Below are positions 3,898 through 51,633 of a stretch of DNA of 64,000 nucleotides, piece after piece. Made by a program: the position numbers and the translations under genes. Origin of the DNA: Escherichia coli. Its GTDB lineage: Bacteria > Pseudomonadota > Gammaproteobacteria > Enterobacterales > Enterobacteriaceae. The stretch is taken from NCBI RefSeq assembly GCF_050920415.1, contig NZ_CP169309.1; one strand, written 5' to 3'. Under the pieces are notes generated by a model that was not told the origin of the DNA, searched no databases, and saw nothing but the letters and a program-made list of their open reading frames with translations. How positions within the stretch are numbered: the first letter of the stretch is position 1; every line of letters starts with the position of its first letter.

Positions 3898-3920
3898 ATA
3901 TGCAATAATTAATTGCACTG

Positions 3921-3954: not shown

Positions 3955-4104
3955 AGGGATAACAAAACCCGAGACTTCTTCCATCTGCCAGCAACAATGC
4001 CTCTTCCTCTACAGTGTTCTCCGGATCTACAGCATCCTGAAGTAGCGCGATGTACTCACTGGCTATCTGCATCAGAAAGTTAAAAACAATGTTTTTAACC
4101 TATA

Positions 4105-4133
4105 AAAATGGCGCTGTATTTGCGCCATTTTTA
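4105..4133 (-). terminator. Hairpin terminator downstream of yagU (possibly bidirectional)
   Basis: aatggcgc / gcgccatt stem flanked by A-run and T-run. Confidence 0.45.
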
Positions 4134-4145
4134 TCATTCAATGCA

Positions 4146-4760: not shown

Positions 4761-5165
4761 ATTTACCCTGTTTGTTTCATTATGTTGTACACCTCTTCAG
4801 GAGTATTCATAAAACAAGATAAATGTAAAGAACTGTATTGTTTTGTATAATGCAATGGTGACTAATCGCCAATTAATATAAGCACCATCATTTCTCCATA
4901 TTTTTATGTTAGAAGTGACAACGATTTGCAGGGTGATGCAGAGCTGACAATCACAGGTTTCCTTATCGGTTTTTGCATCGCACAACTAAAGCAATAAACT
5001 AGCTCCCGTCATCGGCGAATATGAATTAATTAGCCGGGCTCATAGCTGCATTCGCGTTTTAAGAATAATCCTCCTGCTCTCACCGACTATGCTTAACGTT
5101 TAAAAAAGCATCAACACTCTCGCAACGCACTCTTATTTTCCCCTTTAGAATACCGGAGGCCTGGT

Positions 5166-5855
5166 ATGAGCAACCAAGGCGAATACCCCGAAGATAATCG
5201 GGTTGGGAAGCACGAGCCGCACGATTTTAGTTTGACCCGCCGCGATCTGATTAAAGTGAGCGCCGCAACGGCGGCGACCGCCGTGGTTTATCCTCATTCT
5301 ACGCTTGCGGCAAGCGTTCCGGCAGCTACACCCGCGCCAGAGATAATGCCCCTGACACTTATGGTGAACGGCAAAACCGAGCAGCTTGAGGTGGATACCC
5401 GAACCACGCTACTGGACGCTTTGCGTGAAAATCTGCATCTGATCGGTACCAAGAAAGGTTGCGATCACGGACAGTGCGGAGCCTGTACCGTGCTGGTCAA
5501 TGGTCGCAGGCTTAATGCCTGCCTGACGCTGGCAGTCATGCATCAGGGGGCCGAGATCACCACCATTGAAGGCCTGGGTTCACCAGAGAATCTTCACCCC
5601 ATGCAGGCGGCCTTTATCAAGCATGATGGCTTCCAGTGCGGCTACTGCACCTCCGGGCAAATTTGCTCATCAGTAGCGGTGCTAAAAGAGATTCAGGACG
5701 GCATTCCCAGTCACGTCACGGTCGATTTGGTTTCCCCTCCAGAAAGAACTGCCGATGAGATCCGTGAACGTATGAGCGGCAACATCTGTCGCTGTGGTGC
5801 ATACGCTAACATCCTTGCCGCCATTGAAGATGCTGCGGGGGAGATAAAATCATGA
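5166..5855 (+). CDS. paoA: Periplasmic aldehyde oxidoreductase, 2Fe-2S subunit
   Basis: 229 aa, Tat-type signal ([14 protein letters not shown]), two Cys clusters typical of 2Fe-2S ferredoxin-like subunits. Confidence 0.9.
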
Positions 5856-6808
5856 AGGCGTTTACCTATGAACGTGTGAACACCCCTGCCGAGGCGGCAC
5901 TTAGCGCTCAGCGCGTACCCGGCGCAAAATTTATCGCTGGCGGGACCAATCTGCTGGACCTGATGAAGCTGGAAATTGAAACGCCAACCCACCTTATCGA
6001 TGTGAACGGGCTCGGGCTCGATAAGATTGAAGTGACCGACGCGGGTGGGCTGCGCATCGGCGCACTGGTACGGAACACCGACCTGGCGGCTCACGAGCGC
6101 GTGCGTCGTGATTACGCGGTACTCTCCCGCGCTCTGCTCGCTGGCGCGTCTGGTCAGTTACGTAATCAGGCAACCACCGCAGGTAATCTGCTCCAGCGCA
6201 CGCGCTGCCCCTATTTTTACGACACCAATCAGCCCTGCAATAAGCGCCTGCCCGGGAGCGGCTGCGCGGCACTTGAAGGCTTTAGCCGTCAGCACGCGGT
6301 GGTAGGCGTAAGCGAAGCCTGCATTGCCACCCATCCGAGCGATATGGCGGTCGCAATGCGGTTGCTGGATGCGGTGGTGGAAACCATCACGCCGGAGGGA
6401 AAAACTCGCAGTATCACACTGGCTGATTTTTATCACCCACCGGGGAAAACGCCGCACATTGAAACCGCCCTGCTTCCCGGTGAGCTTATCGTTGCGGTGA
6501 CGTTACCTCCGCCGCTCGGCGGAAAACATATCTACCGCAAGGTGCGCGATCGCGCCTCCTACGCCTTTGCCCTGGTATCGGTCGCGGCGATTATTCAGCC
6601 TGACGGCAGCGGGCGCGTCGCGCTGGGCGGAGTAGCACATAAGCCCTGGCGCATTGAGGCTGCGGATGCTCAGCTATCCCAGGGGGCGCAGGCCGTGTAT
6701 GACGCGCTGTTCGCCAGCGCCCATCCCACCGCTGAAAATACCTTTAAACTCCTGTTGGCGAAGCGAACGCTTGCCTCCGTACTGGCTGAAGCGAGGGCAC
6801 AGGCATGA
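5852..6808 (+). CDS. paoB: Aldehyde oxidoreductase FAD-binding subunit
   Basis: 318 aa, CO dehydrogenase/xanthine dehydrogenase FAD-subunit-like; 4-bp overlap with paoA. Confidence 0.9.
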
Positions 6809-9003
6809 AATTTGATAAACCCGCAGGGGAAAACCCGATCGATCAGCTGAAGGTTGTCGGTCGTCCCCATGACCGCATCGACGGACCGCTGAAAACTACC
6901 GGCACGGCACGCTACGCCTACGAATGGCATGAAGAAGCCCCCAACGCCGCCTATGGCTATATCGTCGGTTCCGCCATTGCCAAAGGGCGCCTCACCGCCC
7001 TTGATACGGACGCCGCGCAAAAAGCGCCGGGCGTACTGGCTGTCATTACCGCCAGTAACGCTGGGGCACTCGGCAAAGGCGACAAAAACACCGCCAGGCT
7101 GTTAGGCGGCCCCACTATTGAGCACTATCATCAGGCCATTGCGCTGGTAGTGGCCGAGACCTTCGAACAGGCGCGAGCGGCGGCCTCGCTGGTGCAGGCG
7201 CACTATCGCCGTAATAAAGGAGCTTACTCCCTGGCGGACGAGAAACAGGCCGTCAGTCAGCCGCCGGAAGACACGCCCGATAAAAACGTTGGTGACTTTG
7301 ACGGGGCTTTCACCTCCGCTGCGGTGAAAATTGATGCTACATACACGACCCCGGACCAGAGCCATATGGCGATGGAGCCGCATGCCTCGATGGCCGTCTG
7401 GGATGGAAATAAGCTTACCCTCTGGACCTCAAATCAGATGATTGACTGGTGCCGCACCGATCTGGCAAAAACGCTGAAAGTGCCCGTGGAGAATGTGCGT
7501 ATTATCTCCCCGTATATCGGCGGAGGGTTTGGCGGCAAGCTATTCCTGAGAAGCGATGCGCTGCTGGCGGCCCTCGCCGCCCGTGCGGTGAAACGTCCGG
7601 TTAAAGTGATGCTCCCCCGCCCCACTATTCCCAATAACACCACGCACCGCCCCGCCACCCTTCAGCACCTGCGTATCGGTGCCGACCAGAGCGGGAAAAT
7701 CACCGCTATCTCACATGAAAGCTGGTCCGGAAACCTGCCCGGCGGCACGCCGGAAACGGCGGTACAGCAAAGCGAATTACTCTACGCAGGGGCAAACCGT
7801 CATACCGGCCTGCGGCTCGCCGCGCTTGATTTGCCGGAAGGGAACGCCATGCGTGCGCCCGGCGAAGCCCCCGGTCTGATGGCGCTCGAAATCGCGATCG
7901 ACGAACTGGCGGAAAAAGCGGGCATCGATCCCGTCGAGTTTCGCATCCTGAATGACACTCAGGTTGACCCCGCCGACCCGACGCGCCGCTTCTCTCGCCG
8001 TCAGCTTATCGAGTGCTTGCGCACCGGAGCGGATAAATTTGGCTGGAAGCAGCGCAACGCCACACCCGGACAGGTGCGCGACGGGGAGTGGCTAGTCGGC
8101 CACGGTGTTGCGGCGGGCTTTCGCAATAATCTGCTGGAAAAATCGGGTGCTCGGGTTCACCTCGAACAAAATGGCACCGTTACCGTAGAAACGGACATGA
8201 CCGACATTGGCACCGGCAGCTACACCATTCTGGCCCAGACGGCAGCGGAAATGCTTGGCGTACCGCTGGAGCAGGTTGCGGTTCACCTCGGCGATTCCAG
8301 TTTCCCGGTTTCTGCGGGTTCTGGTGGACAATGGGGCGCGAATACCTCCACCTCCGGCGTTTACGCCGCCTGTGTGAAACTTCGCGAAATGATTGCCTCG
8401 GCGGTCGGGTTTGATCCTGAGCAGTCGCAGTTTGCCGACGGCAAGATTACCAACGGTACCCGAAGCGCCACGCTACATGAGGCCACCGCAGGCGGCAGAC
8501 TGACAGCGGAAGAGAGCATTGAGTTCGGCACTCTCAGCAAGGAGTACCAGCAATCGACCTTTGCCGGGCATTTTGTGGAGGTCGGCGTGCATAGCGCGAC
8601 GGGAGAAGTTCGGGTCCGGCGTATGCTCGCCGTGTGCGCAGCGGGGCGCATTCTGAATCCGAAAACTGCACGCAGCCAGGTCATTGGCGCGATGACTATG
8701 GGCATGGGCGCGGCACTGATGGAGGAGCTGGCGGTAGATGACCGTTTGGGCTACTTCGTTAATCACGATATGGCGGGGTATGAGGTGCCGGTTCATGCGG
8801 ATATCCCAAAACAGGAGGTGATTTTCCTGGATGATACCGACCCCATCTCCTCCCCGATGAAGGCCAAAGGTGTCGGTGAGCTGGGCCTGTGCGGCGTGAG
8901 CGCGGCTATCGCCAACGCGGTGTATAACGCCACCGGTATTCGGGTACGGGATTATCCCATCACTCTGGATAAGCTGCTCGATAAACTGCCGGATGTGGTT
9001 TAA
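6805..9003 (+). CDS. paoC: Aldehyde oxidoreductase molybdopterin-binding subunit
   Basis: 732 aa xanthine-dehydrogenase-family Mo subunit; overlaps paoB stop. Confidence 0.9.
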
Positions 9004-9012
9004 GGAGGAACA

Positions 9013-9969
9013 ATGTCATACTCGCTTTTTGACAAAGACGAGCACTGGCATAAGCCAGAGCAGGCGTTTCTCACCGATGACCACCGGACCATTCTGCGCT
9101 TCGCCGTAGAGGCGCTAATGTCCGGTAAAGGAGCGGTGCTGGTGACGCTGGTGGAGATACGCGGCGGCGCGGCGCGCCCGCTCGGAGCACAGATGGTGGT
9201 GCGCGAAGATGGTCGTTACTGCGGTTTTGTCTCTGGCGGCTGCGTGGAGGCCGCTGCCGCTTTTGAAGCGCTGGAGGTGATGGGCTCAGGCTGCGATCGC
9301 GAAATTCGCTATGGCGAAGGTTCGCCGTGGTTTGACATCGTTCTGCCCTGCGGCGGTGGGATCACGCTGACGCTCCATAAACTACGCTCGACACAGCCTC
9401 TGCTCGCCGTGCTGAACCGCCTGGAACAGAGAAAACCGGCGGGTCTGCGCTACGATCCGCAAGCTCAATCGCTGGTGTGCCTGCCCACGCAAACCCGAAC
9501 GGGCTGGAATCTCAATGGCTTTGAGATGGGGTTCAGGCCATGCGTCAGGCTGATGATTTACGGACGTTCTCTTGAGGCGCAGGCAACCGCGAGTCTTGCA
9601 GCAGCCACAGGCTATGACAGCCATATCTTCGATATTTTTCCGGCCTCAGCCAGCGCTCAGATCGATACCGATACGGCGGTCATTTTGCTGTGCCATGATC
9701 TCAACCGGGAGCTGCCAGTGTTGCAGGCCGCGCGAGAGGCAAAACCCTTTTATCTCGGCGCATTGGGCAGCTATCGAACCCACACGTTACGTCTGCAAAA
9801 GCTCCACGAGCTAGGATGGTCCAGGGAGGAGACAGCGCAAATCCGGGCACCCATCGGGATATTCCCCAAAGCCCGGGATGCGCATACTCTGGCACTCTCC
9901 GTGCTGGCAGAAGTCGCTTCTGTACGTCTCCATCAGGAGGAGGATTCATGCCTGCCCCCGTCGTCGTGA
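9013..9969 (+). CDS. paoD: Molybdenum cofactor insertion chaperone (XdhC-like)
   Basis: 318 aa XdhC/CoxI-like; last gene of the pao operon; AGGAG RBS upstream. Confidence 0.85.
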   Translation: MSYSLFDKDEHWHKPEQAFLTDDHRTILRFAVEALMSGKGAVLVTLVEIRGGAARPLGAQMVVREDGRYCGFVSGGCVEAAAAFEALEVMGSGCDREIRYGEGSPWFDIVLPCGGGITLTLHKLRSTQPLLAVLNRLEQRKPAGLRYDPQAQSLVCLPTQTRTGWNLNGFEMGFRPCVRLMIYGRSLEAQATASLAAATGYDSHIFDIFPASASAQIDTDTAVILLCHDLNRELPVLQAAREAKPFYLGALGSYRTHTLRLQKLHELGWSREETAQIRAPIGIFPKARDAHTLALSVLAEVASVRLHQEEDSCLPPSS

Positions 9970-10070
9970 TCCTTGCGGCCGGGCGTGGAGAGCGCTTTCT
10001 CGCCTCCGGGGGAAATACCATAAATTAAGAGAAAAATCTGCAGTAGCCGTTTTAGAAAATCACCTAAATC

Positions 10071-10104
10071 GTTTAAAAGAGCGCCCAACCCATAGTGGGC
10101 GCTC
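10071..10104 (-). terminator. Rho-independent terminator for the MFS transporter gene
   Basis: 9-bp stem gagcgccca / tgggcgctc followed on the minus strand by a T-run. Confidence 0.45.
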
Positions 10105-10147
10105 ATCGCCTTGTGTAACTTATTCAGCAACGCGCGCCCTCGCCGGA

Positions 10148-11341
10148 CTAAAGCGCACCGGCCTTCTGGCGTGCGGTAACAAAGGTCAGTACGCCAGCGC
10201 ATAGGAGCAGCACGCTACTCATGGCAAACGTACTCTGCCAGCCGAGGTGGTCAAACACGATGCCTCCTGCCGTCGATCCAAGGGCGATTGAAAGCTGAAT
10301 CACCGCGACCATTAGCCCGCCTCCGGCTTCCGCGTTGTCGGGCAACGTACGCGCAATCCATGTCCACCACCCGGTTGGCGCGGCGGTTGCCAGCATGCCC
10401 CAGAGGCCTAACAGCAGCGAGACCATCCAGACGTGATGCCCGGTAAGCATCAGGCTGATGGCAATGACGGCCATCAGTCCAGGTATAGCCATCAGCGTGG
10501 GGTAGAATTTCCTGTTGAGGAATGTCGAAACAACCAGCGTGCCGATAAAACCGGCTACTCCGATAATCAGCAAAATCAACGACAAGCCTGAGGAATCAAC
10601 CAGCGTCACGGTCTCCAGGAACGGGCGCACATAGGTGAATAGCGCAAACTGCCCCATGAAAAACAGGCCACAAGCTATCATGCCGACCACAACCATGCGG
10701 CGGCTAAATAAGCGGAATACCGTGCCAAATGACGTGTGGCTTTTATTCGCATCCATACTGGGCAGGCTGATGCACTGCCAGATAAAGGCGACAACCGCCA
10801 TGGGCACCAGGCACAAGAAAGCGCCTCGCCATCCGACCGTAGCCCCCAGATAGCTTCCCAGCGGTGCGGCCACGACCGTCGCCAGCGCATTACCGGCATT
10901 GAAAATCGCCAGCGCACGCGTGACCTGTTGCTGCGGCACCAGACGAATCGCCGTTGCCGCAGACATCGACCAGAATCCGCCAATCGCCACACCAATCATC
11001 GCGCGACCGATCATATACATCAGATAACTGGAAGCCAGCGCAATAATAAGCCCCGATACGGCCATCAGAACCGTCATTCCCAGCAGCAGGAATTTACGAT
11101 TCATCTTTCCTGCTAGCGTTGAAAGCGTCAGGCTGGTCAGAACCGCCAGTGCGCCGGAGATAGCAATCCCCTGCCCAGCCAACCCCTCCGTCACGCCTAA
11201 ATCGCGGGCAATCGGCGTGAGCAGGCTGACGGGCATAAATTCAGAAGCAATCAGCACAAACACGCACAGGGTCATGGCAAAAATACCGCCCCAGTATGCG
11301 CGCTGATGATGAGGTGATGGTGTTTGGTTTAGCGTCGACAT
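10148..11341 (-). CDS. MFS transporter (DHA1-like, 12 predicted TM helices)
   Basis: 397 aa, hydrophobic helices throughout, MFS-type loop motifs. Confidence 0.8.
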   Translation of the reverse strand: MSTLNQTPSPHHQRAYWGGIFAMTLCVFVLIASEFMPVSLLTPIARDLGVTEGLAGQGIAISGALAVLTSLTLSTLAGKMNRKFLLLGMTVLMAVSGLIIALASSYLMYMIGRAMIGVAIGGFWSMSAATAIRLVPQQQVTRALAIFNAGNALATVVAAPLGSYLGATVGWRGAFLCLVPMAVVAFIWQCISLPSMDANKSHTSFGTVFRLFSRRMVVVGMIACGLFFMGQFALFTYVRPFLETVTLVDSSGLSLILLIIGVAGFIGTLVVSTFLNRKFYPTLMAIPGLMAVIAISLMLTGHHVWMVSLLLGLWGMLATAAPTGWWTWIARTLPDNAEAGGGLMVAVIQLSIALGSTAGGIVFDHLGWQSTFAMSSVLLLCAGVLTFVTARQKAGAL

Positions 11342-11416
11342 AGTGAAATTTCACGAAGGCCAGGATAAAAGCCACCAGCCTATGGCCGGTGGCTTTGCAT
11401 CAATTCAGGAGAGGTT

Positions 11417-12553
11417 TTATTTCAGTTTGGTCTGGAAAAATTGTTCGAACTTCGCGAAAGGTATTTTTCCGGCCACGTTATCGTACAGGTCCACGTGATT
11501 TGCCCCAGGTACCACCACCAGCTCTTTATCTTTACTGCCAACCGCCTTGTAAGCATCTTCAGCAAAATAGCGTGAATGTGCTTTCTCACCGGTCACAATC
11601 AGCGTCGGAATGGTGATTTCACTGGCGTAACTCAACAGCGGCATATTCATAAATGACAGCGGCATCGTTGCCGTCCACGCCCCGGTAGAGTTAACGGAAC
11701 GTTCGTGGAAGCCGCGCGGCATGCGATAGTAGTCAAAGAACTCTTTCAGTACCGAATGAGGATTTGCCGGCAGCGTTTCTGGCAGAATGCGCTCGCCCGC
11801 ACTGACCTTGCCGTTGCTATCGACATTAATATCATGACCACCATGAGCGAACGTTCCGCTCTGCGCATCCTTCCAGCGCTGTTCATTCAGATATTGCAGA
11901 ACAGCACGACGGTCGGCGGTAGAATAACGGTCTTCGCCATCCCCCACACCATGGCCCATCGCCCGGCTCATGTCATACATCACGCTGGTAGCAACCGCTT
12001 TAACGCGGGTATCCATCGCCACGTCGTTCAGCGCCATGCCGCCCCAGCCACAAATACCGAGCAGCCCGATACGGTTGCGATCTACCTCTTTTTGCAGCCC
12101 TAAGAAATCCACCGCCGCGCTGAAATCTTCAGTGTTGATATCCGGTGAGGCGACGTTTCGCGGATAGCCGCCGCTTTCCCCGGTGTAAGAAGGATCGAAC
12201 GCCAGGGTAACAAACCCTCGTTCCGCCAGCGTCTGCGCATACAGGCCGCTGGATTGCTCTTTCACCGCGCCAAATGGCCCACTGACCGCAATCGCCGCCA
12301 GCTTGCGATCGCCACGGTCTTTAGGCAGGTAAAGATCGCCCACTAAGGTGATGCCATATCGGTTCGGGAACGAGACTTTACGGTGATCGACTTTCTGGCT
12401 CTCGGCGAACGTTTTATCCCATTTATCTGTCATGGACACAGGGGCATTAGGATTGGTTGAATCAGCATAACTCATTGTCGTGACTCCACTTAATGATGCG
12501 AAAAGCAGCATGGTCGGCATCGCGGTTTTTAGCGTTCGGGTGAAGGCTTTCAT
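11417..12553 (-). CDS. Secreted alpha/beta hydrolase with Cys nucleophile elbow (dienelactone-hydrolase-like)
   Basis: Signal peptide; GICGWGG elbow; start placed at internal ATG because the ORF-track start is a TTG; no clear RBS. Confidence 0.7.
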   Translation of the reverse strand: MKAFTRTLKTAMPTMLLFASLSGVTTMSYADSTNPNAPVSMTDKWDKTFAESQKVDHRKVSFPNRYGITLVGDLYLPKDRGDRKLAAIAVSGPFGAVKEQSSGLYAQTLAERGFVTLAFDPSYTGESGGYPRNVASPDINTEDFSAAVDFLGLQKEVDRNRIGLLGICGWGGMALNDVAMDTRVKAVATSVMYDMSRAMGHGVGDGEDRYSTADRRAVLQYLNEQRWKDAQSGTFAHGGHDINVDSNGKVSAGERILPETLPANPHSVLKEFFDYYRMPRGFHERSVNSTGAWTATMPLSFMNMPLLSYASEITIPTLIVTGEKAHSRYFAEDAYKAVGSKDKELVVVPGANHVDLYDNVAGKIPFAKFEQFFQTKLK

Positions 12554-12739
12554 AAAAATCCCCATAAAAAACAACAGAGAGATACAGGTTTCCGACGGAC
12601 AACACTGCGGTGCTTTACTTTGATGGGGTCATTATAGTGAGCAGAATTAGTGCTGATTAGGGGGCGATTAATGCTAAGATTAATACCATATTGTTATAAA
12701 TTAATGCGGAGATTGCCGGCATGAAGGGGGGATGTTTCA

Positions 12740-13624
12740 ATGGCGAAAAGGGAGAACTACAACGAGCTGTACCTGCTTATGCAGGTGGTGCGGGAAGGCA
12801 GCTTTACCGCAGCGGCTCAGCGGCTGGGTCTTGCTCAGTCAGGAGTCAGCCGTTCTGTTCGCGAGCTTGAAGAAAGGCTCGGCGTCCAGCTGCTAGTGCG
12901 CACCACGCGTAAACTGTCGCTGACGCAAGCAGGCGAGCAGCTCTACCAGAAGACGGCATCTGGATTTGAAATGTTAGATCTTGGGCTTGCCACACTGGCG
13001 CACTATCGAGAGACGCCCTCCGGCACGGTGCGTATCAATGCCAGCCAGCACGCGATTGATAAATGCCTGCTGCCAAAGCTGGCGGTATTTAAACAGCGAT
13101 ATCCTGATATCCGGCTTGAACTGATAAATGAGAGCCGGTTCGTCGATATCATCGAGGAAAGATTCGATGCTGGTGTCCGCCTGGGGCCTGAAGTCGGCCA
13201 GGGTATGGTCGCGGTACGCATCACGCCCGATATGGAGATGGCAATTGTGGGGACTCCGGAACATTTTCGTCGCTATGGTTTTCCGCAAACCCCGACTGAT
13301 TTAAAGGCACATCCCTGTATCGCCTATCAGTTTGCCGACGGCAGCGTATACCAGTGGGAACTCAATCAGGATGATAAAAAAATTACCCACCGGCCTGAAG
13401 GGCAATGGGCCCTATCCGACAGCTATATGGAAGCAGAAGCCGCACGGCTGGGCCTCGGATTGGCCTATGTTCCTGTTGAACTGGTTGCGGATGATTTAGA
13501 ACACGGTAAGCTTATCAGAGTGTTGCAGCGTTACAGCCTGCGAATGGAGGGATTGTTTCTCTATTACCCTCATCGCAACGTCTCCCCCGCTCTGCGGATG
13601 GTCATTGATACATTGAAAATCTGA
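12740..13624 (+). CDS. LysR-family transcriptional regulator
   Basis: N-terminal HTH (FTAAAQRLGLAQSGVSRSVRELEERLGVQLL), 294 aa; divergent from the hydrolase gene. Confidence 0.85.
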   Translation: MAKRENYNELYLLMQVVREGSFTAAAQRLGLAQSGVSRSVRELEERLGVQLLVRTTRKLSLTQAGEQLYQKTASGFEMLDLGLATLAHYRETPSGTVRINASQHAIDKCLLPKLAVFKQRYPDIRLELINESRFVDIIEERFDAGVRLGPEVGQGMVAVRITPDMEMAIVGTPEHFRRYGFPQTPTDLKAHPCIAYQFADGSVYQWELNQDDKKITHRPEGQWALSDSYMEAEAARLGLGLAYVPVELVADDLEHGKLIRVLQRYSLRMEGLFLYYPHRNVSPALRMVIDTLKI

Positions 13625-14333
13625 ACGTTAACAACGACCGACTCTTCACTGTGCAATATTGTGTCAGGTAGTCACTCTGCGTTCAATTCCAGGGGCCGCT
13701 TTGAGCGAGAAAGAGCGGACTTATCTGTACAAGGGGACTATCCAGCAATGGAGATCACCCATAAGAAAAAAGTACCAGGCTCCCTCGACAACCTTCATCC
13801 GGGAATTTAGCCTCAATCAACATTTTTATATCTGTCAGGTTACTTCATTATGAAAACCGATCAATATCGTTGTTTTTGTTGCAATAGTAGAATACGCGTA
13901 TTTATTCCTCCATTTCTATTAATAACGGCCATAAACTGTTCACTTCACTGATATTTAAAATATGCATCCTTTTCCTGTTTTTCAAGTTGTTCAGCGGCGT
14001 AAGAAAAAGTATTAATTATGAATTCGACGATTTAACCATTTCTGTCTGATTGGTAATCATCCGTGATTAATGCTGGTCTATTGATTACGCCAGCATTAAC
14101 CGCTTAGGGATGTATTCTTCCTGATCATATACCTCCCTCGAAAAGAGAGAAAATAAAACTGTGTCCAATATTACTCTACCACTCCAGACCGAAGCATCGG
14201 TAGAATTAGCAGAACGACTGGTACAATAGATTGGGATAGCGTCATTTGTCAGGTATTCCATTGCCTGACAAATGACAATTTTGAGTCAATAGACGTGCTT
14301 CTTGATCATGTCTTAAAAATTATACCATGAGCC

Positions 14334-14564
14334 TTATGAAGCATCATTTTTACTGACTGGTGTTAACTTTGCTATCATATAAACTCTGTTCTTAAAAAAC
14401 GCGCCCAGAATTTTATATGATTTCCCTTGTTTTTCTGCCTGTAAAGAAATTTCTTTTTCAGTGCTGTTAATGGTTGAACCGACGGCAGTAATCGTTTTGG
14501 CGACGCTACTGAATGATAATAAAGACAGTGTAACCACAACAATTAAAGAACAGATAGTATTCAC
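14334..14564 (-). CDS. Small secreted protein, possibly YhcN/BhsA (DUF1471) family
   Basis: GTG start 7 nt after an AGGAG RBS; signal peptide; C-terminal pattern resembling DUF1471; lies in AT-rich DNA. Confidence 0.4.
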   Translation of the reverse strand: MNTICSLIVVVTLSLLSFSSVAKTITAVGSTINSTEKEISLQAEKQGKSYKILGAFFKNRVYMIAKLTPVSKNDAS

Positions 14565-14775
14565 GTTAATTCTCCTGACAATTGAGAGGGTGAGTTTTAT
14601 ATACATAGGTATTAAACATGAGTCATATTTACTCCAAGAGAAAATACTCCTTCTGTAATTAAACCTTCATCTCCTTCGGGGTGAGAAATACATAATGCAT
14701 CTTACTATGAAAAACAGGTGGATATAAATTTTCCTCCCTACCTATTTAATAAAACGTGAATATAAAAGTTATTCT

Positions 14776-15498
14776 TCAGTTTGCAGATGCAGTAGGTCTG
14801 ATGGTAATTTCGGTTGTATCAACGCTTTCGGGAGATTCAATAATATGCCTTACAGCACGGGCAATATCCGCGGGTTGAAGTGCAACAGAACGGTAGGCGT
14901 CCATTGACTTCATGGTTTCCACATGGGTCATGGTTGAAGCCAGTTCACTTTCTACAACCCCAGGATTTACGCAGGTCACACGGATTTTCGAGCTTTCCTG
15001 CCGTAAGCCATCAGAAATAGCCCGTACTGCAAATTTTGATGCGCAATAGACTGCGCCTGTGGGCACAACAGAAAGGGCACCAATAGAACCAAGATTGATT
15101 ATCTGACCGGAACCCTGTGCGTCCATCACCGGAAGTACAGCGCCAATTCCCCAAAGTACGCCTTTGATATTCACGTCAATAGTGAGCTCCCATTCATTTT
15201 GTTTTCCTGCTGCAAGCGGTGAAAGCGGCATAACGCCCGCATTATTGATAAGAACATAAACTCGCCCCCAGCTATCCAGCGCTGCTTGCACGAAATCTGC
15301 CATGGACTGTCGGTCTGTGACATCCAACTCCCGCGCTTTAGCAATTCCTCCTGCGCGGCAGATTTCTTTTGCAATGGCTTCGATACGCTCAAGTCTGCGT
15401 GCTCCCAGTAAAACCTTTGCACCTGTCGTTCCCAGCTCTCTGGCAATACCTTCCCCAATACCACTTGATGCGCCGGTGATTAATATGACCTTATCCAT
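14776..15498 (-). CDS. Short-chain dehydrogenase/reductase (SDR)
   Basis: TGASSGIG cofactor motif and YxxxK catalytic motif; start at ATG preceded by GAAGGAG. Confidence 0.85.
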   Translation of the reverse strand: MDKVILITGASSGIGEGIARELGTTGAKVLLGARRLERIEAIAKEICRAGGIAKARELDVTDRQSMADFVQAALDSWGRVYVLINNAGVMPLSPLAAGKQNEWELTIDVNIKGVLWGIGAVLPVMDAQGSGQIINLGSIGALSVVPTGAVYCASKFAVRAISDGLRQESSKIRVTCVNPGVVESELASTMTHVETMKSMDAYRSVALQPADIARAVRHIIESPESVDTTEITIRPTASAN

Positions 15499-15596
15499 TA
15501 CGTTCTCCTTCAAATGTGTTCGGAGAGATAATAGAACTTTATGATTGGTTCCAGTATCCTGCTTTCAATGTACTCAATGGTTAGCGGCATTAAACA

Positions 15597-16496
15597 ATGA
15601 AAATCGATCTTAATCTTTTACCCATTTTTATCGCGGTAGCAGAAGAGAGTAATTTCAGTAAAGCCGCCGCACGACTGGGCGTTACCCGTTCAGCGGTCAG
15701 TCAGGGAATAAGACGTCTTGAAGATGCATTCGGGACAATGCTTGTAATGCGGACCACGCGCTCAGTTAATTTGACGGAAGCGGGAGAACGGCTGCATAAA
15801 TCGTTGTCATTACCTTTATCCGGTATTGAGGCAGCGTTCGAAGAGATGGTCTCTGACCATGTACCACGTGGACATCTCAGAATCGCGGTGACGTCGATAG
15901 CAGAAGAATTTCTTTCAGGTCCGCTAATCGCTTCGTTTGCAGCTGCCAATCCAGCCGTTACGCTTGATATTGTTGTCACGGATGAGGAATTCGATATCGT
16001 TACCGCAGGTTACGATGCTGGCGTAAGGCTCGGAGAGGTCATTGAAAAAGACATGATTGCTGTTCCCCTTACCGGTAAGCAGCGTGAAATGGTCGTTGCC
16101 TCTCCCTCCTATCTCGCAGCCAACAGCACACCTGTTCATCCGCGCGAACTTGTGAATCATAAGTGTATCGGCTGGCGTCAGTCCCCGGAGGTTGCGCCTT
16201 ATCGCTGGCCATTTGAAGAAAACGGTAGAGCTTTCGACCTTGCGATTGAACCGCAGATTACGACGAATGATCTGCGTCTGATGTTGAGGCTGGCTCTTGC
16301 CGGCGGAGGAATAACAATTGCCACTCAGGAAACGTTCAGGCCATATATTGAAAGCGGTAAGCTTGTATCGCTGCTTGATGACTTTCTTCCACAATTTCCG
16401 GGCTTCTATCTGTATTTCCCACAGCGTCGCAATATTGCACCAAAGCTCCGCGCCCTGATTGACCACGTCAAGGAATGGCGGCAGCAATTGGCTTAA
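15597..16496 (+). CDS. LysR-family transcriptional regulator
   Basis: HTH (FSKAAARLGVTRSAVSQGIRRLE), 299 aa; divergent from the SDR gene. Confidence 0.85.
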   Translation: MKIDLNLLPIFIAVAEESNFSKAAARLGVTRSAVSQGIRRLEDAFGTMLVMRTTRSVNLTEAGERLHKSLSLPLSGIEAAFEEMVSDHVPRGHLRIAVTSIAEEFLSGPLIASFAAANPAVTLDIVVTDEEFDIVTAGYDAGVRLGEVIEKDMIAVPLTGKQREMVVASPSYLAANSTPVHPRELVNHKCIGWRQSPEVAPYRWPFEENGRAFDLAIEPQITTNDLRLMLRLALAGGGITIATQETFRPYIESGKLVSLLDDFLPQFPGFYLYFPQRRNIAPKLRALIDHVKEWRQQLA

Positions 16497-16623
16497 ATGT
16501 CTGCACCTGCACTGCCTGATGTCAGAACAGTATTTTGAGAAATTGCCAGGGTTACAATGGCACAAATATGGCACAGGAGGAAAACGTGGTGTAATTGAAT
16601 ATGAGGTAACTACTTGATTTAAA

Positions 16624-16699
16624 TGGTGCCGATAATAGGAGTCGAACCTACGACCTTCGCATTACGAATGCGCTGCTCTACCAACTGAGCTATATCGGC
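16624..16699 (-). tRNA. thrW: tRNA-Thr, anticodon CGT
   Basis: 76-nt cloverleaf reading GCCGATATAGCTCAGTTGGTAGAGC...GGTTCGACTCC...CACCA on the minus strand; anticodon loop ..CGT..; upstream of proA as in E. coli. Confidence 0.9.
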
Positions 16700-24535: not shown

Positions 24536-24545
24536 TTACAATAAT

Positions 24546-24575
24546 GTCCACGCCTGCGGGCGTGGACTACTGTTT
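24546..24575 (+). terminator. Rho-independent terminator of pepD
   Basis: 9-bp stem gtccacgcc / ggcgtggac with a 4-nt loop, then a T-containing tail. Confidence 0.55.
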
Positions 24576-24833
24576 GAAGCCAATGGCTATCTATATCGAA
24601 ATAACAAAACATTATGAAACTCATGAAAAGGTCGCATATTTATATAGCTGCGACCATATTTCATGGGGAGAATTTCTGATCACCAAAGAAAGTTTTGCGC
24701 TGGAATCCGTGAAAGAACTTAAGGGTGAAAAGCAGAATTTTTATATGTTCAGAGCCTGGGGCAAAGTCAGGAAAACATACTTAGCCACGGGAGAATTTCC
24801 CCTGGAAACATGTTACGCCGCTTAAAGTCAGAA

Positions 24834-25373
24834 TCATTTTTTCACGCGTTTTACATTTACCATTTTAGCATTACGCCTGCACCACATAGCAATGGCGGCA
24901 GCTACTAATGCCAGTTCCAGTAAAAAAGACCAGTGTAATAAAAAATTGAGCCACCACGGATGATGTACCGCTGTAATATGAAAGAATGCAAATGGCTGGT
25001 TAACGAAAGGCATCAACCACCAGATATCACCGACCAGCGTATCGAGTAATAAATGCGCGATACTATTCAGGCAAAACACCACGCCCAACCACGCCGGAAG
25101 TTTATTCTTCGCAATTGCGGCCCAGACTAATGTCGCCGCCAGCAGAGCAAACCATAATAATGGCCAATGAGACGGGTAAAGATGATGATGTCGTTGCCCG
25201 TTATCCACCAGATAACACCAGAAGAGATCAAAATCGGGTGCAACGGCCCCGACTAAGCCAATAACCATCGCCCACCGCGCATGACGAGAAATCAGCGGTA
25301 GGCGTTTCACTAAAGTACAAGTTATTAAATATCCAGCCGGAAGATGACCGATAAACATGACGAATCCTTTCAT
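24834..25373 (-). CDS. Integral membrane protein, possibly YdjM-like metal-dependent hydrolase
   Basis: 179 aa, several TM helices and His-rich segments; no K-12 counterpart at this position that I recall. Confidence 0.55.
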   Translation of the reverse strand: MKGFVMFIGHLPAGYLITCTLVKRLPLISRHARWAMVIGLVGAVAPDFDLFWCYLVDNGQRHHHLYPSHWPLLWFALLAATLVWAAIAKNKLPAWLGVVFCLNSIAHLLLDTLVGDIWWLMPFVNQPFAFFHITAVHHPWWLNFLLHWSFLLELALVAAAIAMWCRRNAKMVNVKRVKK

Positions 25374-25420: not shown

Positions 25421-26035
25421 TTACACAGCGATAAAAGCCATCCCTGTAAACGTCCGTCGCGGGTTGCCACGTTCAATCTGGTGATGGAACATTCGCCGCT
25501 GCGATTTCAGCGCCGCGCTATTTTCCTGTCGCTGTTGTTCCAGCTTCCAGGCAATCAGTAATCGCGCCAGCCGTTTGTTAGCATGCTGACTGCGCTCTGA
25601 CTGAACCTTCACCCTAATACCGGATGCCAGATGCGTGGCGCGCACAGCCGAGTCGGTTTTATTGACATGTTGACCGCCCGGCCCCGACGAACGCAGCGTC
25701 TCATAATGGATCGCATCGGATTGCTCCTGCTCATCTGCAGTAAAACGCCCAATGCCCAGAAACCAGTTTTTGCGCCCATGATGAGGGCGATACGGACTCG
25801 GACAAATCCACTGGATAGTGCCACACCAGCTTTCGCTTAGTGCCCATGCGTTGTCGCCATCAAGTGAAACCAGCGCCGAACGTAGTGTGTCAGAGTAGCG
25901 ACCCGTTTCTGTTTCCAGCACCGTTACCGCGACGTCTTGTCGGGCAGCTTCTTTAATCAGCCTGTCCAGTGCCTTTTTCACTGCGAGACAACATTCTTCC
26001 GGTCCCTGAGCTGAGGAGAGTTGTAGCAAGATCAT
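25421..26035 (-). CDS. prfH: Peptide chain release factor homolog PrfH (full length)
   Basis: GGQ motif ([16 protein letters not shown]); start at internal ATG (MILLQLSS...) gives about 204 aa; start overlaps the rtcB stop by 4 bp. Confidence 0.85.
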
Positions 26036-27171
26036 CCTTTTTTCCCTCCACTGTTTTTGAGCGTCAGCACCGGACGCAGTCGCGCGACAGGAATAATTAA
26101 ACCGGCCTGCACCAGACATTGCACCACACTTTCAGCCGATTTATAGGCTTGTGGCGCTTCTTCAAAGATGAGTTGTTTATCGCGACAAATTACCCGGCTG
26201 CCAAGTTCAGTACGTGAGAGCTGCGTCGCTGTGTATTTCGCTGCCAGACGCCCTTTACACTCGGTGCGCCCCCATTTACGCCCTGCCCCATGCGCCAGCG
26301 AGTGGAGCGTTTTTTCGTTCGCAACAGGCTTAACCAGCCAGGAGTAATCACCGCGTGAACCGGGAATAATCACCAGACCGTTGTCATCCGGCGTAGCCCC
26401 TTTACGGTGTAACCATCCTTGTTGATCGCCGATTCGACATGCGCTAACAAAGTTATGCGCCACATCCAGAACCGAATTTCCGTTGGCCTTAACTTGTTGC
26501 ATTATGCGCAAAGCGATCAGCTGGCGATTAATACGCGCAAACGCCAGCGCATCATCATGTTCCGCAATATAACTTAGCGCGTCGTCACTGCCTTCAGGCA
26601 AACCATGATGCGAAAACGAGGCAATATGCCGCTGTAAAATAGACTGCCCTAAACCACGCGAGCCGCTATGGACCAGCAGTTGCAGATGCTGCGCATCCAG
26701 ACCTGACAGTGCAAACAGTTCAGCGTCGATAATTTGATCAACTTGTTGCAGTTCTGCGAAGTGGTTTCCGCCACCGATAGAGCCAAGCGCGCAGCGCCAC
26801 GGATGCTGTGCAAACGCTGACGGCAGGTTTTCCTCCAGCCAGCTTTCTTCAGCAACGTCATCCAGCACAGATAATCGCTTTTCAAACTTATCGGCGTTGT
26901 ATTTACGCGCGAGAATATCTGTTTGCCATAGCGCCATGCCGCAGCCGATATCATTGCCGACCAGTGCCGGGTAAAAACGGCCTACGGAGAAGAACGCTGC
27001 GCCAATCGGATAGCCGCGTCCGGGGTGTAAATCTGGCATCCCTACTACGCGTTGCATGTCGGGTAAATTTGCCGTGATGTGTAATTGTTGGATCGCTGAA
27101 CTCTCGATCCACAGGTCATCAGATGCAATGGTAAATACCGCATCGGATAAGGGACGAATATATTTGCCCAT
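26032..27171 (-). CDS. rtcB: RtcB-family RNA ligase (RtcB2-type, partner of PrfH)
   Basis: 379 aa with RtcB-like His/Cys metal-ligand motifs; translationally coupled to prfH. Confidence 0.85.
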
Positions 27172-27184: not shown

Positions 27185-27312
27185 TATACTCGTCATACTT
27201 CAAGTTGCATGTACTGCGACTGCGTTCGTTCACCCCAGTCACTTACTTTAGTAAGCTCCTGGGGATTCACTCGCTTGTCGCCTTCCTGCAACTCGAATTA
27301 TTTAGAGTATAT
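27185..27312. repeat. ERIC / IRU element
   Basis: Contains the reverse complement of the ERIC core GTGAATCCCCAGGAGCTTAC..AAGTAAGTGACTGGGGTGAACG between rtcB and yafP. Confidence 0.8.
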
Positions 27313-27488
27313 AAATATAAAAATCAGGAAATGGCAGACGAATCCAGGGCAAGAAAAAAAGAATTAATCCTGGAAAGGTCTGCAAAGAGTCATTGATAAA
27401 GGATTTTTCATGATTTACCTCCTTGCAGTTTGTGGAATAAGAAAACGCGCACATATTAGGCGGGCGTTATTTTCATTGCAAGCTGGAT

Positions 27489-27941
27489 TTAGTGTTGCGG
27501 TTTATATCGCATATGAAAATTAGTAAACCACGCTCCCCGGCATTCAACGCGCTGCTGCTTAACTGTCTGAAAACCATAACGTTCAAAAAAGGGTTTTGCG
27601 GTTATGCTGGCGTCCACCGTAAGTTCGGATTCAGACTTAATCAAAGGTTTTAACAAAGCGCTGGCAACCCCACGGCGGGTATATTCAGGGTCAACAAATA
27701 ACATATCGATATAATGTTCAATGCGGGAAATAAAACCAACCGGTTGTGCATTAATCACAGCAACCCGCACTTGTGATTTCGCGAGTTTCTCTTTCCATCG
27801 ATGTTCATCAATCTGCGCCCAGGCGGCAATTTGTTGTGGTGAATAATGCTGACTGGCGGTCATCGTAACCGCTCTAATAAAAATAGCGCATAGTTGCTGA
27901 AAATCGCCAGGCTGATAGTCTCTTATTTGTATATTATTCAT
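27489..27941 (-). CDS. yafP: GNAT-family N-acetyltransferase
   Basis: 150 aa; start overlaps the dinB stop. Confidence 0.85.
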
Positions 27942-28993
27942 AATCCCAACACCAGTTGTCTTTCCATTTGCGGATCCAGCAACGTCACATGCAGCCCCAC
28001 CAGCCGCACACCGCGCCCGCCACGGCGTTCATCCCAGGTTTTACGCGCAGTGGCGATCAAGTCAGCTTTATTCAGCCGCGGCCAGACGTGTTCCTGAGTG
28101 GTTTGCTGAAAATCGTCGAACTTTAATTTCACCCCCTGGCGGGCAATCAGCAAATCAGGTTTTACCTTTGCCAGACGGCGTTCAAGTTCCGGATACAACC
28201 GCTCGATAATCGCTTCACATTCAGACCAATGATGAATATCTTCCGCCATCGTGCGTTCCACACCAACGGATTTTCGCAACCTTTCGCTGTTAACGTCGCG
28301 CTCGTCAATGCCCTGGCTACGCTCCCACAAAATGCGGCCAAATTTGCCAAAGCGTTTAAGCAACGTCACCAGATCACACTTTTGTACATCGCCACAGGTT
28401 CGTAGCCCCATCGCTTCCAGTTTTGCCGCCGAGACTTTGCCGACACCGGGAATTTTTGCCAGCGGTAAGGTTTGCAGAAATGCCGGAACTTCTGCCGGCG
28501 TAATCACAAACTGACCGTTGGGTTTATTCATGTCTGAGGCGATTTTGGCGAGAAACTTGACCGGCGCAACGCCCGCAGACGCCGTCAGTTGCAGCTCGTT
28601 GAAGATCGTCTGGCGGATTTCCTGAGCGATAAGGGTCGCAGAGCCGTGGCAATGTACGCTGTCGGTGACGTCGAGATAAGCTTCATCCAGCGACAACGGC
28701 TCAATACGCGATGTGTAGCGAGAGAAGATTTCGCGGATATGATTTGACGCTTCTTTGTAGGCGTCAAAGCGCCCTGGAAGCAAGGTGAGATGCGGACACA
28801 GTTTGAGCGCCATGCCGGTTGGCATTGCGCTACGCACGCCAAATTTACGCGCGGGATAATTGGCGGTGCTGATCACCCCCCGGCGTTCGCGGCTGCCGCC
28901 AATAGCAATAGGGATATCGCGCAGGGCGGGATTGTCGCGCATCTCCACCGCGGCGAAAAAGCAGTCCATATCCACATGAATGATTTTACGCAT
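27938..28993 (-). CDS. dinB: DNA polymerase IV
   Basis: 351 aa, Y-family polymerase N-terminus ([22 protein letters not shown]...). Confidence 0.95.
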
Positions 28994-29063
28994 TGCTCAC
29001 CTCTCAATACTGGTAAAGTATACAGTGATTTCAGAGTTTGAGAAATGCGTAAAGATTCAGCAT

Positions 29064-29987
29064 TTAACGCGTTCGCTGCGAAAGCACCTGCTGCTTATCC
29101 AGCTTTTTCACCAACGGCTGCACCACCTTATCCCCATGCTGACCAAAATATTGATACAACGTATCGGACGCGCTTTTGGTGAGCACCATAATCTCAATGC
29201 GCCGGTTACCCGCGCTTTGCGGATTTTTGGCATCCAGCAGCATCTGGTCCGCCATCGCGCTCACCTGCATTACTTTATCTTCCGGCATCCCGGCGTCTTC
29301 CAGCACCCGACGGGCCGAGAGCGCGCGGTCACCCGAAAGGTTCCAGTTGTTGTAGATATTGCTTTTATAGGCCATCGCATCGGTATGCCCGGTAATAATA
29401 ATTTTGTTATCGAGCGAGTCGAATACCGGCGCGAGCTCCACCAGCAGCGTTTTAAAGAACGGCATAATCTTCGCGCTGCCGCGTTCAAACATATTGCGGT
29501 TCTGGTCATCTTTAATCAGCACGCGTAATCCCTGCGGAACAATCTCCATCTCCAGATTGGCTTCCATATGCGCATCGCGGGCGATGGTGTTGATACTGGT
29601 CGCCAGCTCGCCAAGCTCAGTGGCGGACTTCTTCTTCAGTAGCGCCGTTTTCTCGTTGACGTCGCGGGCTTTTTTCTCCGTCTCTTCCGGCACCGCCACG
29701 GTGGCAGGTTTCAGCGGATGCGTCGGGCTGATTTTATTTAACGGCGATAGCCCGCCGCCGTTGAAAATCGACTGCCCGTGCAGCGCGGCGATAATGCTTT
29801 CACGCTCGGATTTACTGACGCTGTTGACAATCCACAGCGTCATAAACAGCGCCATCATTGCCAAAGTAAAGTCGGCGAACGCCACCTTCCACGCCCCGCC
29901 GTGATGCCCGGCATGATTCTTTTTGATCTGCCGCCGGACGATGGTGGTTTTTGCCCCTCGCTCGCGGCGGTTGCCCGTCTTCCTCAT
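29064..29987 (-). CDS. lafU: Lateral-flagellar stator protein, MotB-like (OmpA-type C-terminal domain)
   Basis: Single TM helix then peptidoglycan-binding domain; start at internal ATG just after the lafT stop; last gene of Flag-2 next to dinB. Confidence 0.8.
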   Translation of the reverse strand: MRKTGNRRERGAKTTIVRRQIKKNHAGHHGGAWKVAFADFTLAMMALFMTLWIVNSVSKSERESIIAALHGQSIFNGGGLSPLNKISPTHPLKPATVAVPEETEKKARDVNEKTALLKKKSATELGELATSINTIARDAHMEANLEMEIVPQGLRVLIKDDQNRNMFERGSAKIMPFFKTLLVELAPVFDSLDNKIIITGHTDAMAYKSNIYNNWNLSGDRALSARRVLEDAGMPEDKVMQVSAMADQMLLDAKNPQSAGNRRIEIMVLTKSASDTLYQYFGQHGDKVVQPLVKKLDKQQVLSQRTR

Positions 29988-48746: not shown

Positions 48747-50171
48747 ATGTCTGAATTTGAATTACTCGTGAAAGATCTTCTTTTAAAATCAGAAGAAGAC
48801 GAGAAAAAGCGACAAGAAAAAGATCGAGAATTAATTTCAAAGGTCCTTGAAATCTATGATCAAAAATATGTTGCAGAACTCTTACGAAAACTAGGAAAAA
48901 ATGAATGGAGCAGAGAAACACTTAACCGTTGGATAAATGGTAAGTGCAATCCTAAGCAATTAACTTCTGCGGAGGAAACTTTACTCCGCAAGATGCTTCC
49001 AGAACCTCCTGAACATCATCCTAACTACACATTTCGTTTTATTGATTTATTCGCAGGGATTGGTGGTATTCGTAAAGGTTTCGAAAACATTGGTGGACAG
49101 TGTGTTTTTACCAGCGAATGGAATAAAGAAGCGGTAAGAACCTACAAAGCTAATTGGTTTAATGATGAACTAAATCATAAATTTAATCTTGATATACGAG
49201 AAGTCACTTTAAGTGATAGAGATGATGTTTCCGAAGTAGAAGCCTATAATCATATAGACAAAAATATTCCAGATCATGATGTCCTTCTGGCCGGTTTTCC
49301 ATGTCAGCCCTTTAGTCTGGCTGGGGTAAGCAAGAAAAACTCTCTGGGGCGTGCACATGGTTTTGAATGTGAGGCACAAGGAACACTATTTTTTGATGTC
49401 GCTCGGATTATTAAATCAAAAAAACCAGCTATTTTTGTGCTTGAGAATGTGAAAAACCTTAAAAGTCATGATAAAGGTAAGACTTTTAAAGTCATCATGG
49501 AAACACTCGATGAATTAGGATATGAAGTCGCCGATGCTGGTGTTACTGGCTCAGATGATCCCAAAATTATAGATGGAAAACATTTTTTACCCCAACATCG
49601 TGAGCGTATAGTGTTGGTAGGATTTCGTAGAGATCTGAATATTCACAAGGATTTCACGTTACGAAACATTAACCGCTTTTACCCTCAAAACAGGCCAACA
49701 TTTGGTGAATTATTAGATCATGATGTTGACGATAAATATATTTTGACTCCAAGGTTATGGGAATATCTTTACAATTATGCAAAAAAACATGCAGCAAAAG
49801 GCAATGGGTTTGGTTTTGGTTTAGTGGATCCTAAAAATCCAGATAGTATCGCAAGGACTCTGTCTGCTCGTTATCATAAAGATGGCTCTGAAATATTGAT
49901 TGATCGTGGCTGGGATAAGGCTGTCGGTGAAATTGACTTTAGTAATCCAGCGAATCAAGAGCATCGTCCAAGAAGACTGACACCTCACGAATGTGCCAGG
50001 CTAATGGGTTTTGAAAAACCAGGGGGAAGACCTTTTAGAATACCTGTATCGGATACACAAGCCTATAGACAATTTGGGAACTCAGTTGTTGTTCCAGTAT
50101 TTGAAGCTGTAGCAAGATTACTAGAACCATATATACAAAAGGCAGTCAATATGCATATTATTAACGATTAA
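48747..50171 (+). CDS. DNA cytosine-5 methyltransferase, EcoRII/Dcm family (CCWGG specificity predicted)
   Basis: Motifs [30 protein letters not shown]; near-colinear with the M.EcoRII/Dcm sequence as I recall it; GGGGA RBS before the ATG; AT-rich relative to flanks. Confidence 0.9.
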
Positions 50172-50194
50172 TAATAATTAATTTTCACTATTGT

Positions 50195-50217
50195 GAGGCC
50201 TTTTTATTAAAGGCCTC
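50195..50217. terminator. Bidirectional hairpin terminator between the convergent M and R genes
   Basis: gaggccttt-ttatt-aaaggcctc flanked by A/T runs. Confidence 0.5.
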
Positions 50218-50257
50218 TAAATATATAATCATGAGTTTTTACAAGTATGTTTTTATA

Positions 50258-51463
50258 TTATACAAAATCTTCATAAAGCGTTATTAACTGTGTAATAAAA
50301 CCATCTAATGTTAATATTTCCTCCCTGATTTCCTCCGGGTATTTTTTATGAAGAGGGGAAGGTACAACCAAGGTGACACCTTCAGCTCTCATTTCGTTAA
50401 ATTGAGCAACAGAGACACCCTCTTGCAAGGTAAACAAATATATCTTGTTGATTTTATTTGCTTCATTAAGCGCCTGTCGCCACCGATCCTTACATGTTGT
50501 TTTTACAGCAAGCATACGGAGTTTTTCTCTTGGAAAGTGATCATCATGGTAAGCTGCCGCTGATGGGAAAAGAAAATCGGGTTTCTTTTTTCCTTCAGTA
50601 ATACATTGAGTAGCAAAATGATGCAGTCCATGCTCAATAAAAATTTGCTCAAGATGTAGCTCCAGTGATTTCCCGGCTCGAGATTTTCTTCTATTACTAA
50701 CAGAGTTAGCCATAGCTATAAAATCATCTACAGAACCAAATCCTTGACGGATGATGTCCAGTACGTGAATTTCTTCAACCATTAGAAAGAGATCATATTC
50801 AATACGGCGGCGTTCTAAAAGTTGGTCATCTGGACTGGTTACGCCTGTTGGGTAATAACCTGCCGCATATTGGATAATATCTAAGCCAGAAGGAAAACTA
50901 TGTTTCCAGCTTTCCGGAATAACATATTCCTTTTGAGAGATTTTTGGCCTTGATGCGAGTACACCAAGTATTTCACTGGCAGGCCCAAACATTAAAGTTC
51001 CTGGAATGATCTCCCCAACAGCTGATTCCAGTACATCCTCTTCTTCTGGGCTTACACAAACCCATACATCAACACTTTTGCTGTCTCTCCCAGGCTCATG
51101 TTCAAACGCAAGCACAGACAAAGCACCTGTATTTTCCGGATCTTGTAGGGGACTGCCAGCCCCCCACCGAGTGATACGTTTTTCATTTCTTGTTTGCCCG
51201 AAATACTTATTATTGTAGTAAATAGCGCGAACCTCACTGTCTACACATTCATGAGAGGAATAAGTTGCGCGCAATAAAACCGAAGGATTTTTTTCTGACG
51301 TATGATCTATAGATGGGAAAAGTTCACCGACGATACCGGAAGGGATATATACCCCCACTTGATGCCCTCCTGTTGCACCAGTGTCGTTTGCTGAAAGACG
51401 TTTGATATAGAGATAATTGTTACCACCGACCTTATCAAGCAGCCAATCTTGTAATCCTGACAT
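50258..51463 (-). CDS. Type IIE restriction endonuclease, EcoRII family
   Basis: 401 aa; long conserved blocks matching R.EcoRII as I recall it (YIKRLSANDTGATGGHQVG, RNEKRITRWG, SPLQDPENTGAL, SVSNRRKSRAGKSLELHLE, KPDFLFPS, LRMLAVKTTCKDRWRQ); convergent with the methyltransferase. Confidence 0.85.
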   Translation of the reverse strand: MSGLQDWLLDKVGGNNYLYIKRLSANDTGATGGHQVGVYIPSGIVGELFPSIDHTSEKNPSVLLRATYSSHECVDSEVRAIYYNNKYFGQTRNEKRITRWGAGSPLQDPENTGALSVLAFEHEPGRDSKSVDVWVCVSPEEEDVLESAVGEIIPGTLMFGPASEILGVLASRPKISQKEYVIPESWKHSFPSGLDIIQYAAGYYPTGVTSPDDQLLERRRIEYDLFLMVEEIHVLDIIRQGFGSVDDFIAMANSVSNRRKSRAGKSLELHLEQIFIEHGLHHFATQCITEGKKKPDFLFPSAAAYHDDHFPREKLRMLAVKTTCKDRWRQALNEANKINKIYLFTLQEGVSVAQFNEMRAEGVTLVVPSPLHKKYPEEIREEILTLDGFITQLITLYEDFV

Positions 51464-51633
51464 AAGACATCCTTATTTTTGCATAGTATCCGATTCAGAT
51501 TTTTCCACATATCCATCAGAACGACCAGAACCAACATATCTGAACAAAAAGTAAATATGCGATAACGATTAAAGTTTTGCCGCCTGTTAACCGCTTTACC
51601 GGAGTAACCACCCAATACCGAGACGAGGTTGCG

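Follow-up and report, generated by a model that had tools for sequence, protein, structure and literature searches.

Genes and promoter of the dinB operon

The window, by which we mean the whole 64,000-nt stretch of DNA analyzed here, corresponds to positions 4025522 to 4089521 of the chromosome of Escherichia coli MFDS1022581 (NZ_CP169399.1), with 100% identity checked over window positions 27300 to 29100. It carries intact dinB and yafP genes on the same strand (Table 1), and the coordinates of both genes in the RefSeq record coincide with those of the open reading frames (ORFs) in the window. The gene identities proposed in the initial annotation were upheld by two NCBIfam equivalogs, both above cutoff. 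DinB matched NF002677 (DNA polymerase IV) at 547.4 bits against a cutoff of 256 over residues 1 to 345, and YafP matched NF007338 (YafP-type GNAT, the PRK09831 equivalog) at 324.4 bits against a cutoff of 146 over residues 1 to 150 of 150. Identity to the K-12 proteins was 99.7% for DinB and 96% for YafP.

Table 1 Features of the window, with positions counted from its first nucleotide
Feature	Position	Strand	Basis
dinB, DNA polymerase IV, 351 aa, operon gene 1	27938 to 28993	minus	ORF, NCBIfam, RefSeq annotation
yafP, GNAT-family N-acetyltransferase, 150 aa, operon gene 2 and last	27489 to 27941	minus	ORF, NCBIfam, RefSeq annotation
Junction ATTATGA, dinB stop TGA over yafP start ATG	27938 to 27944	minus	sequence, K-12 alignment
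LexA (SOS) box CTGTATACTTTACCAG, upstream of dinB	29010 to 29025	minus	pattern match CTG-N10-CAG
Promoter-like site TTCTCA, 16-nt spacer, TATACT; overlaps LexA box	29017 to 29044	minus	consensus scan, consensus match only
Lambdoid prophage end	1 to 16699
Integrase	15491 to 16609
tRNA-Thr	16624 to 16699
Two genes between pepD and prfH	24544 to 25358
rtcB-family RNA ligase (379 aa) and prfH	25421 to 27171
Flag-2 (lateral flagella) cluster	29064 to 64000
Restriction-modification segment	48849 to 51565
DNA cytosine methyltransferase	48849 to 50273	plus
Type II restriction endonuclease	50360 to 51565	minus

The reading frame of dinB ends TTG GGA TTA TGA, and yafP begins ATG AAT AAT from the A that precedes this TGA. 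Both the ORF list and the raw sequence place the ATGA at 27938 to 27941 in the end of dinB and the start of yafP alike, and the junction sequence, GGGATTATGAATAAT, contains the ATGA overlap of the two-gene operon form. The claim that dinB directly abuts yafP with an overlap of 4 bp was therefore confirmed by ORFs, sequence, and RefSeq coordinates.

The K-12 operon has four genes and shares with the window its flanking genes, the LexA box, lafU upstream, and the rtcB/prfH region and pepD downstream. Alignment of the window with K-12 revealed a single clean gap of 759 bp between dinB and yafP. The K-12 segment missing from the window consists of a 51-nt dinB-yafN spacer, yafN, yafO, and a 9-nt yafO-yafP spacer. 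Searches of the entire 64-kb window with K-12 YafN and YafO (tblastn, E ≤ 1) gave no match, while control loci gave both, in agreement with the initial statement that no yafN or yafO frames lie between the two genes. The window likewise held no YafN-YafO type II module, defined as YafO_toxin (PF13957) after a PhdYeFM-type antitoxin gene. For the rest of the chromosome, we searched complete genomes with a chimeric query made of the strain's rare restriction-modification segment and K-12 yafNO. This query matched one place on the MFDS1022581 chromosome and two in other strains, which argues that this chromosome has no megablast-detectable, K-12-like copy of yafNO elsewhere; the search covers the chromosome and reaches nucleotide identities of ~85% or more.

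Within the 70 nt upstream of dinB, 68 positions are as in K-12 and 2 differ, one of them just 3′ of the LexA box core. We take this box to be the dinB SOS box from what is established for K-12 dinB, and its sequence pattern predicts a LexA-regulated promoter preceding the gene. A simple scan of the minus strand downstream of yafP found no intrinsic terminator-like site. The LexA-controlled promoter would drive dinB, with yafP directly next, and since the gene boundary leaves no space for a promoter, the 4-bp overlap is most naturally read as one SOS-induced transcript of dinB and yafP with coupled yafP translation. YafP would most likely come from ribosomes that terminate at the dinB stop codon and reinitiate there, since the yafP ATG shares ATGA with that codon. 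With the yafN-yafO cassette absent, SOS induction would give Pol IV and YafP but no YafO mRNA interferase. The suggestion that the content of the SOS transcript is altered holds: yafNO is absent and the LexA box is kept.

Distribution of the two-gene arrangement

How common is this arrangement? Of 5,426 complete E. coli genomes, 5,416 (99.8%) have the dinB-yafP region and 2,847 (52%) have K-12-type yafNO, so that ~47% of complete genomes are without yafNO. A 201-bp junction query was contiguous at full coverage in at least 1,784 genomes; this figure is a lower bound, as the query matched only 4,347 genomes because megablast loses short diverged matches, and the yafNO count is the preferred estimate. 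The two-gene and K-12 forms have about the same frequency. The former is therefore an ordinary and well-documented polymorphism, nothing peculiar to the MFDS1022581 genome, and the K-12 norm implied by the initial annotation was not upheld. For annotation, K-12 is not the reference state of the dinB operon; in roughly half of E. coli, the SOS response would bring up Pol IV and YafP but not the YafO toxin.

Comparison of the junction across Escherichia, as the initial annotation had proposed, gave one core, GGGATTATGAA, in all 10 two-gene alleles sampled, including those of the window and of Escherichia sp. MOD1-EC7003. The identical contiguous junction in at least 1,784 complete genomes, together with its presence in 10 of 10 alleles read base by base, refutes the reading that it is an assembly or sequencing artifact, to which we give virtually no chance.

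Both the two-gene arrangement and how often it occurs are already known, as are its junction and a deletion model for its origin. Gutierrez et al. (2011, NAR 39:4192; PMC3105422) found only dinB and yafP in 40% of sequenced E. coli and in 50% of the ECOR collection, with the two genes "always fused together" through a 4-nt ATGA overlap. They explained this by recombination of two ATGA sequences within the four-gene operon, inferred at least three independent losses of yafNO (in groups B1, B2, and D), and reported the four-gene form in E. fergusonii. Their YafP experiments were performed in strain CFT073, which was chosen for its two-gene arrangement. A 2023 survey (PMC10790755) found a low prevalence of YafO in phylogroups B1, C, and G and in ST131 and ST73. 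The arrangement in the window thus has little discovery value, having been in print in 2011, with the absence of YafO from particular lineages described again in 2023.

The operon of the window is the same as the two-gene operon of CFT073 in gene content, ATGA overlap, SOS-type dinB promoter region, and junction sequence. There is no structural difference between the window and operons of the CFT073 type; the window allele is unusually diverged at synonymous sites. We conclude that the window carries the SOS-regulated dinB operon in its two-gene form, as in CFT073.

Other taxa contain several forms of the operon. The two-gene form with the ATGA overlap was also present in E. marmotae (junction GGGGTTATGAA) and in Escherichia sp. 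MOD1-EC7003, the four-gene form in E. whittamii, and a three-gene form, dinB-yafN-yafP, in Escherichia sp. E1V33. A three-gene form that keeps yafN and is without yafO was also seen in E. coli MEI003 (hit H125). A contig scan with YafP gave five loci, with E. fergusonii, E. albertii, and E. ruysiae not among them; the operon state of E. fergusonii is taken from Gutierrez et al. 2011 (PMC3105422). One further locus (L036) comes from a broken, low-quality assembly and contributed nothing to the comparison.

Outside Escherichia, dinB is directly followed by a gene for a YafP-family acetyltransferase, with no toxin-antitoxin pair, in Citrobacter amalonaticus, Klebsiella aerogenes, Raoultella, Kluyvera ascorbata, and locus L037. 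The YafP proteins of the four named taxa are 56 to 58% identical to that of K-12 and ~59% identical to that of the window. Synteny is kept in the cassette-free taxa through pepD-gpt-frsA, which lies downstream of dinB-yafP in the same four, or through rtcB-prfH. We read adjacency of dinB and yafP without the cassette as the deep state in the family. The junctions differ, however: C. amalonaticus, K. aerogenes, Raoultella, and Kluyvera ascorbata have a TAA stop and a spacer of 2 to 5 nt where the window has the ATGA overlap, and with L037 included the cassette-free genera have a dinB TAA stop 1 to 5 nt before the yafP ATG. A YafP homologue was also seen in Yokenella.

The four-gene operon is not confined to Escherichia. 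Pseudocitrobacter, a genus assigned from cluster names, has dinB-yafN-yafO-yafP at the syntenic place (L028, 2097 to 4358), with nqrM upstream and pepD downstream, and a further locus (L038, 1 to 482) has yafO immediately upstream of yafP. The Pseudocitrobacter proteins are 83.5% (YafN) and 84.8% (YafO) identical to those of K-12, and synonymous divergence between them is saturated. The left boundary of the cassette is as in Escherichia, with the dinB TGA followed by TGTATAC; no 7-bp repeat flanks the Pseudocitrobacter cassette. In Klebsiella variicola (L031 to L033), YafN-YafO homologues (YafO ~69% identical) lie away from dinB in varying contexts, adjoining DUF4365, DUF3644, or SMC/AAA_23 genes.

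Origin of the two-gene form

The initial annotation left open whether the junction represents an ancestral state or a precise loss. In the explanation that we consider probable overall, the window carries a two-gene SOS operon derived from a four-gene ancestor by precise deletion. The Escherichia two-gene form would most likely have arisen when the 759 bp that separate two short direct repeats were lost; the repeats are copies of ATTATGA, located where dinB ends and where yafP starts. Descent would then have kept the two-gene state, which was probably exchanged among lineages through homologous recombination as well. ATTATGA stands on both sides of the 759-bp segment in K-12 and in a single copy in the window, and if the four-gene form lost the DNA from one ATTATGA to the other, the result would be exactly the Escherichia two-gene junction. 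In E. coli the microhomology measures 7 bp and not 4, which refines the published deletion model. Two-gene Escherichia alleles also share their TGA stop with the four-gene forms of both Escherichia and Pseudocitrobacter.

The repeat itself is within chance expectation. When the two boundary zones were shuffled with their composition preserved, some 7-mer was common to both in 27% of shuffles, so the repeat permits deletion and does not prove it. On the same ground, we dropped ATTATGA as a target-site-duplication signature of insertion, as evidence either way; that idea is weakened further by two additional ATTATG copies in the dinB-yafN spacer and by the Pseudocitrobacter cassette being without the repeat.

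Either state also occurs on nearly identical flanks. No difference separates the two-gene DA33135 allele from the four-gene ST95-32 allele in the final 363 nt of dinB or the initial 216 nt of yafP. The A3 allele, again with two genes, departs from that of ST95-32 at only 2+3 positions, none of them in the 900 nt upstream of the junction. Such flanks fit de novo precise deletion better than import from a donor diverged by 2 to 7%. The three-gene form of E1V33 also counts for deletion: in this locus (L003, 3676 to 3969), a deletion runs from yafO codon 9 to the yafP start at a TTAT microhomology. On the basis of the junction type and the near-identical flanks, we side with the published deletion model.

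Several observations count against deletion. Cassette-free adjacency of dinB and yafP prevails across genera, so that parsimony alone requires no four-gene Escherichia ancestor, and the cassette is less diverged than its surroundings. We compared synonymous divergence (dS) among four-gene loci (L001, L004, L006, and L017 to L022). In 8 of 9 Escherichia pairs, dS of both yafN and yafO was lower than that of dinB, a pattern that fits spread after the flanks diverged, and the cassette was ~2 to 8 times less diverged. Between K-12 and E. whittamii, for instance, dS was 0.29 for dinB, 0.088 for yafN, 0.037 for yafO, and 0.17 for yafP. The exception was the pair of K-12 and SWHEFF_58, in which yafN dS lay above that of both flanks. 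In each of the 4 pairs tested for third-position differences, the cassette had significantly fewer than the flanks (Fisher P from 9e-10 to 0.05). Either the cassette moved between lineages more recently than the divergence of its flanks, or the dinB and yafP haplotypes are unusually old.

One potential explanation for these data is that the window represents an ancestral site that was never occupied, with yafNO inserted later and spread through part of Escherichia by recombination. It is consistent with the cassette-free dinB-yafP of C. amalonaticus, K. aerogenes, Raoultella, Kluyvera ascorbata, L037, and E. marmotae, with the range of yafO dS (0.02 to 0.07) against that of dinB (0.09 to 0.33) within Escherichia, and with the divergence of the window dinB, at 5 to 7%, from every four-gene allele sampled. 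The variable, island-like contexts of YafO-family cassettes in K. variicola are consistent with a mobile cassette family as well. However, the Escherichia junction, with its TGA stop and ATGA overlap, is unlike that of the cassette-free genera, with TAA and a spacer, and equals the predicted deletion product of the four-gene form. Pseudocitrobacter has the same cassette with the same left boundary, and because two genera share it there with saturated synonymous divergence, the cassette is old at the dinB-yafP site. Either state, moreover, is found on near-identical flanks. To our knowledge, no insertion mechanism has been described for a cassette without a recombinase. We therefore regard a never-occupied site as unlikely, and secondary loss of yafNO as the more likely history. 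Of the two options of the initial annotation, precise loss is favored within Escherichia; at the level of the family, direct adjacency without a toxin-antitoxin pair is widespread.

The low divergence of the cassette nevertheless keeps alive, at low probability, the reading that some two-gene alleles never held the present cassette. It is conceivable, although we doubt it, that yafNO is a selfish element and that recombination spread it across Escherichia species at a time when the alleles of dinB and yafP had already diverged. The present cassette would in that case never have occupied the sites of deeply diverged two-gene alleles such as that of the window, and the published view, which takes the four-gene operon to be ancestral in Escherichia, would be reversed.

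Whichever way the form arose, how did this allele come to be in MFDS1022581? The window dinB differs from the other sampled alleles, including those of other Escherichia species, at 55 to 75 of 1,056 nt (5 to 7%), with 2020CK-00188 as the exception. Nearly all of this divergence is synonymous (dS ~0.25 to 0.35, dN ~0.001 to 0.008), with almost no amino acid change. Only one of 5,424 matching records exceeded 95.4% identity to the dinB-yafP segment, and identity of the window to K-12 fell from 96.9% at pepD-gpt to 94.0% across dinB-lafU. The only close relative of the window dinB is that of E. coli 2020CK-00188, with 21 differences that all fall within nt 298 to 684, a block that suggests a recombination mosaic. 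Each of these observations would fit homologous replacement of dinB-yafP from a divergent Escherichia donor, by which the strain would have gained a ready-made two-gene allele with no deletion of its own. E. whittamii, E1V33, MOD1-EC7003, and E. marmotae were all equally or more distant, however, and none of them fits as the donor. We regard such an import as a real possibility that nonetheless falls short of probable. It concerns the route of the allele into the strain and not the nature of the allele, and it is compatible with our preferred explanation of a precise deletion from a four-gene ancestor.

Neighboring features of the window

The first part of the window is the end of a lambdoid prophage with lysis genes, a Q antiterminator, methyltransferases, a KAP NTPase, and an integrase; it abuts a tRNA-Thr gene that adjoins proA. 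Two genes lie between pepD and prfH, where K-12 has no room for them. One encodes a 93-aa hypothetical protein with no NCBIfam match, and the other encodes a YdjM-family membrane-bound metal-dependent hydrolase; E. marmotae has the hydrolase too.

Both the rtcB-prfH region and the Flag-2 cluster are intact in the window and remain only as remnants in K-12. The genes for the RtcB-family RNA ligase and for release factor H (prfH) overlap by 4 bp in the window, and both are truncated pseudogenes in K-12. The Flag-2 cluster is complete, running from lafU/motA through lafA, flg, and fli to a sigma-54 activator, and at its place K-12 has only a truncated lafU and a flhA fragment. Inside the cluster, between flgA and flgM, lie the cytosine methyltransferase and restriction endonuclease genes. 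This restriction-modification segment was present at full length in only 28 of 5,426 complete genomes, and its closest copy beyond its own record, at 99.8%, was in strain N96 from a Tibetan pig.
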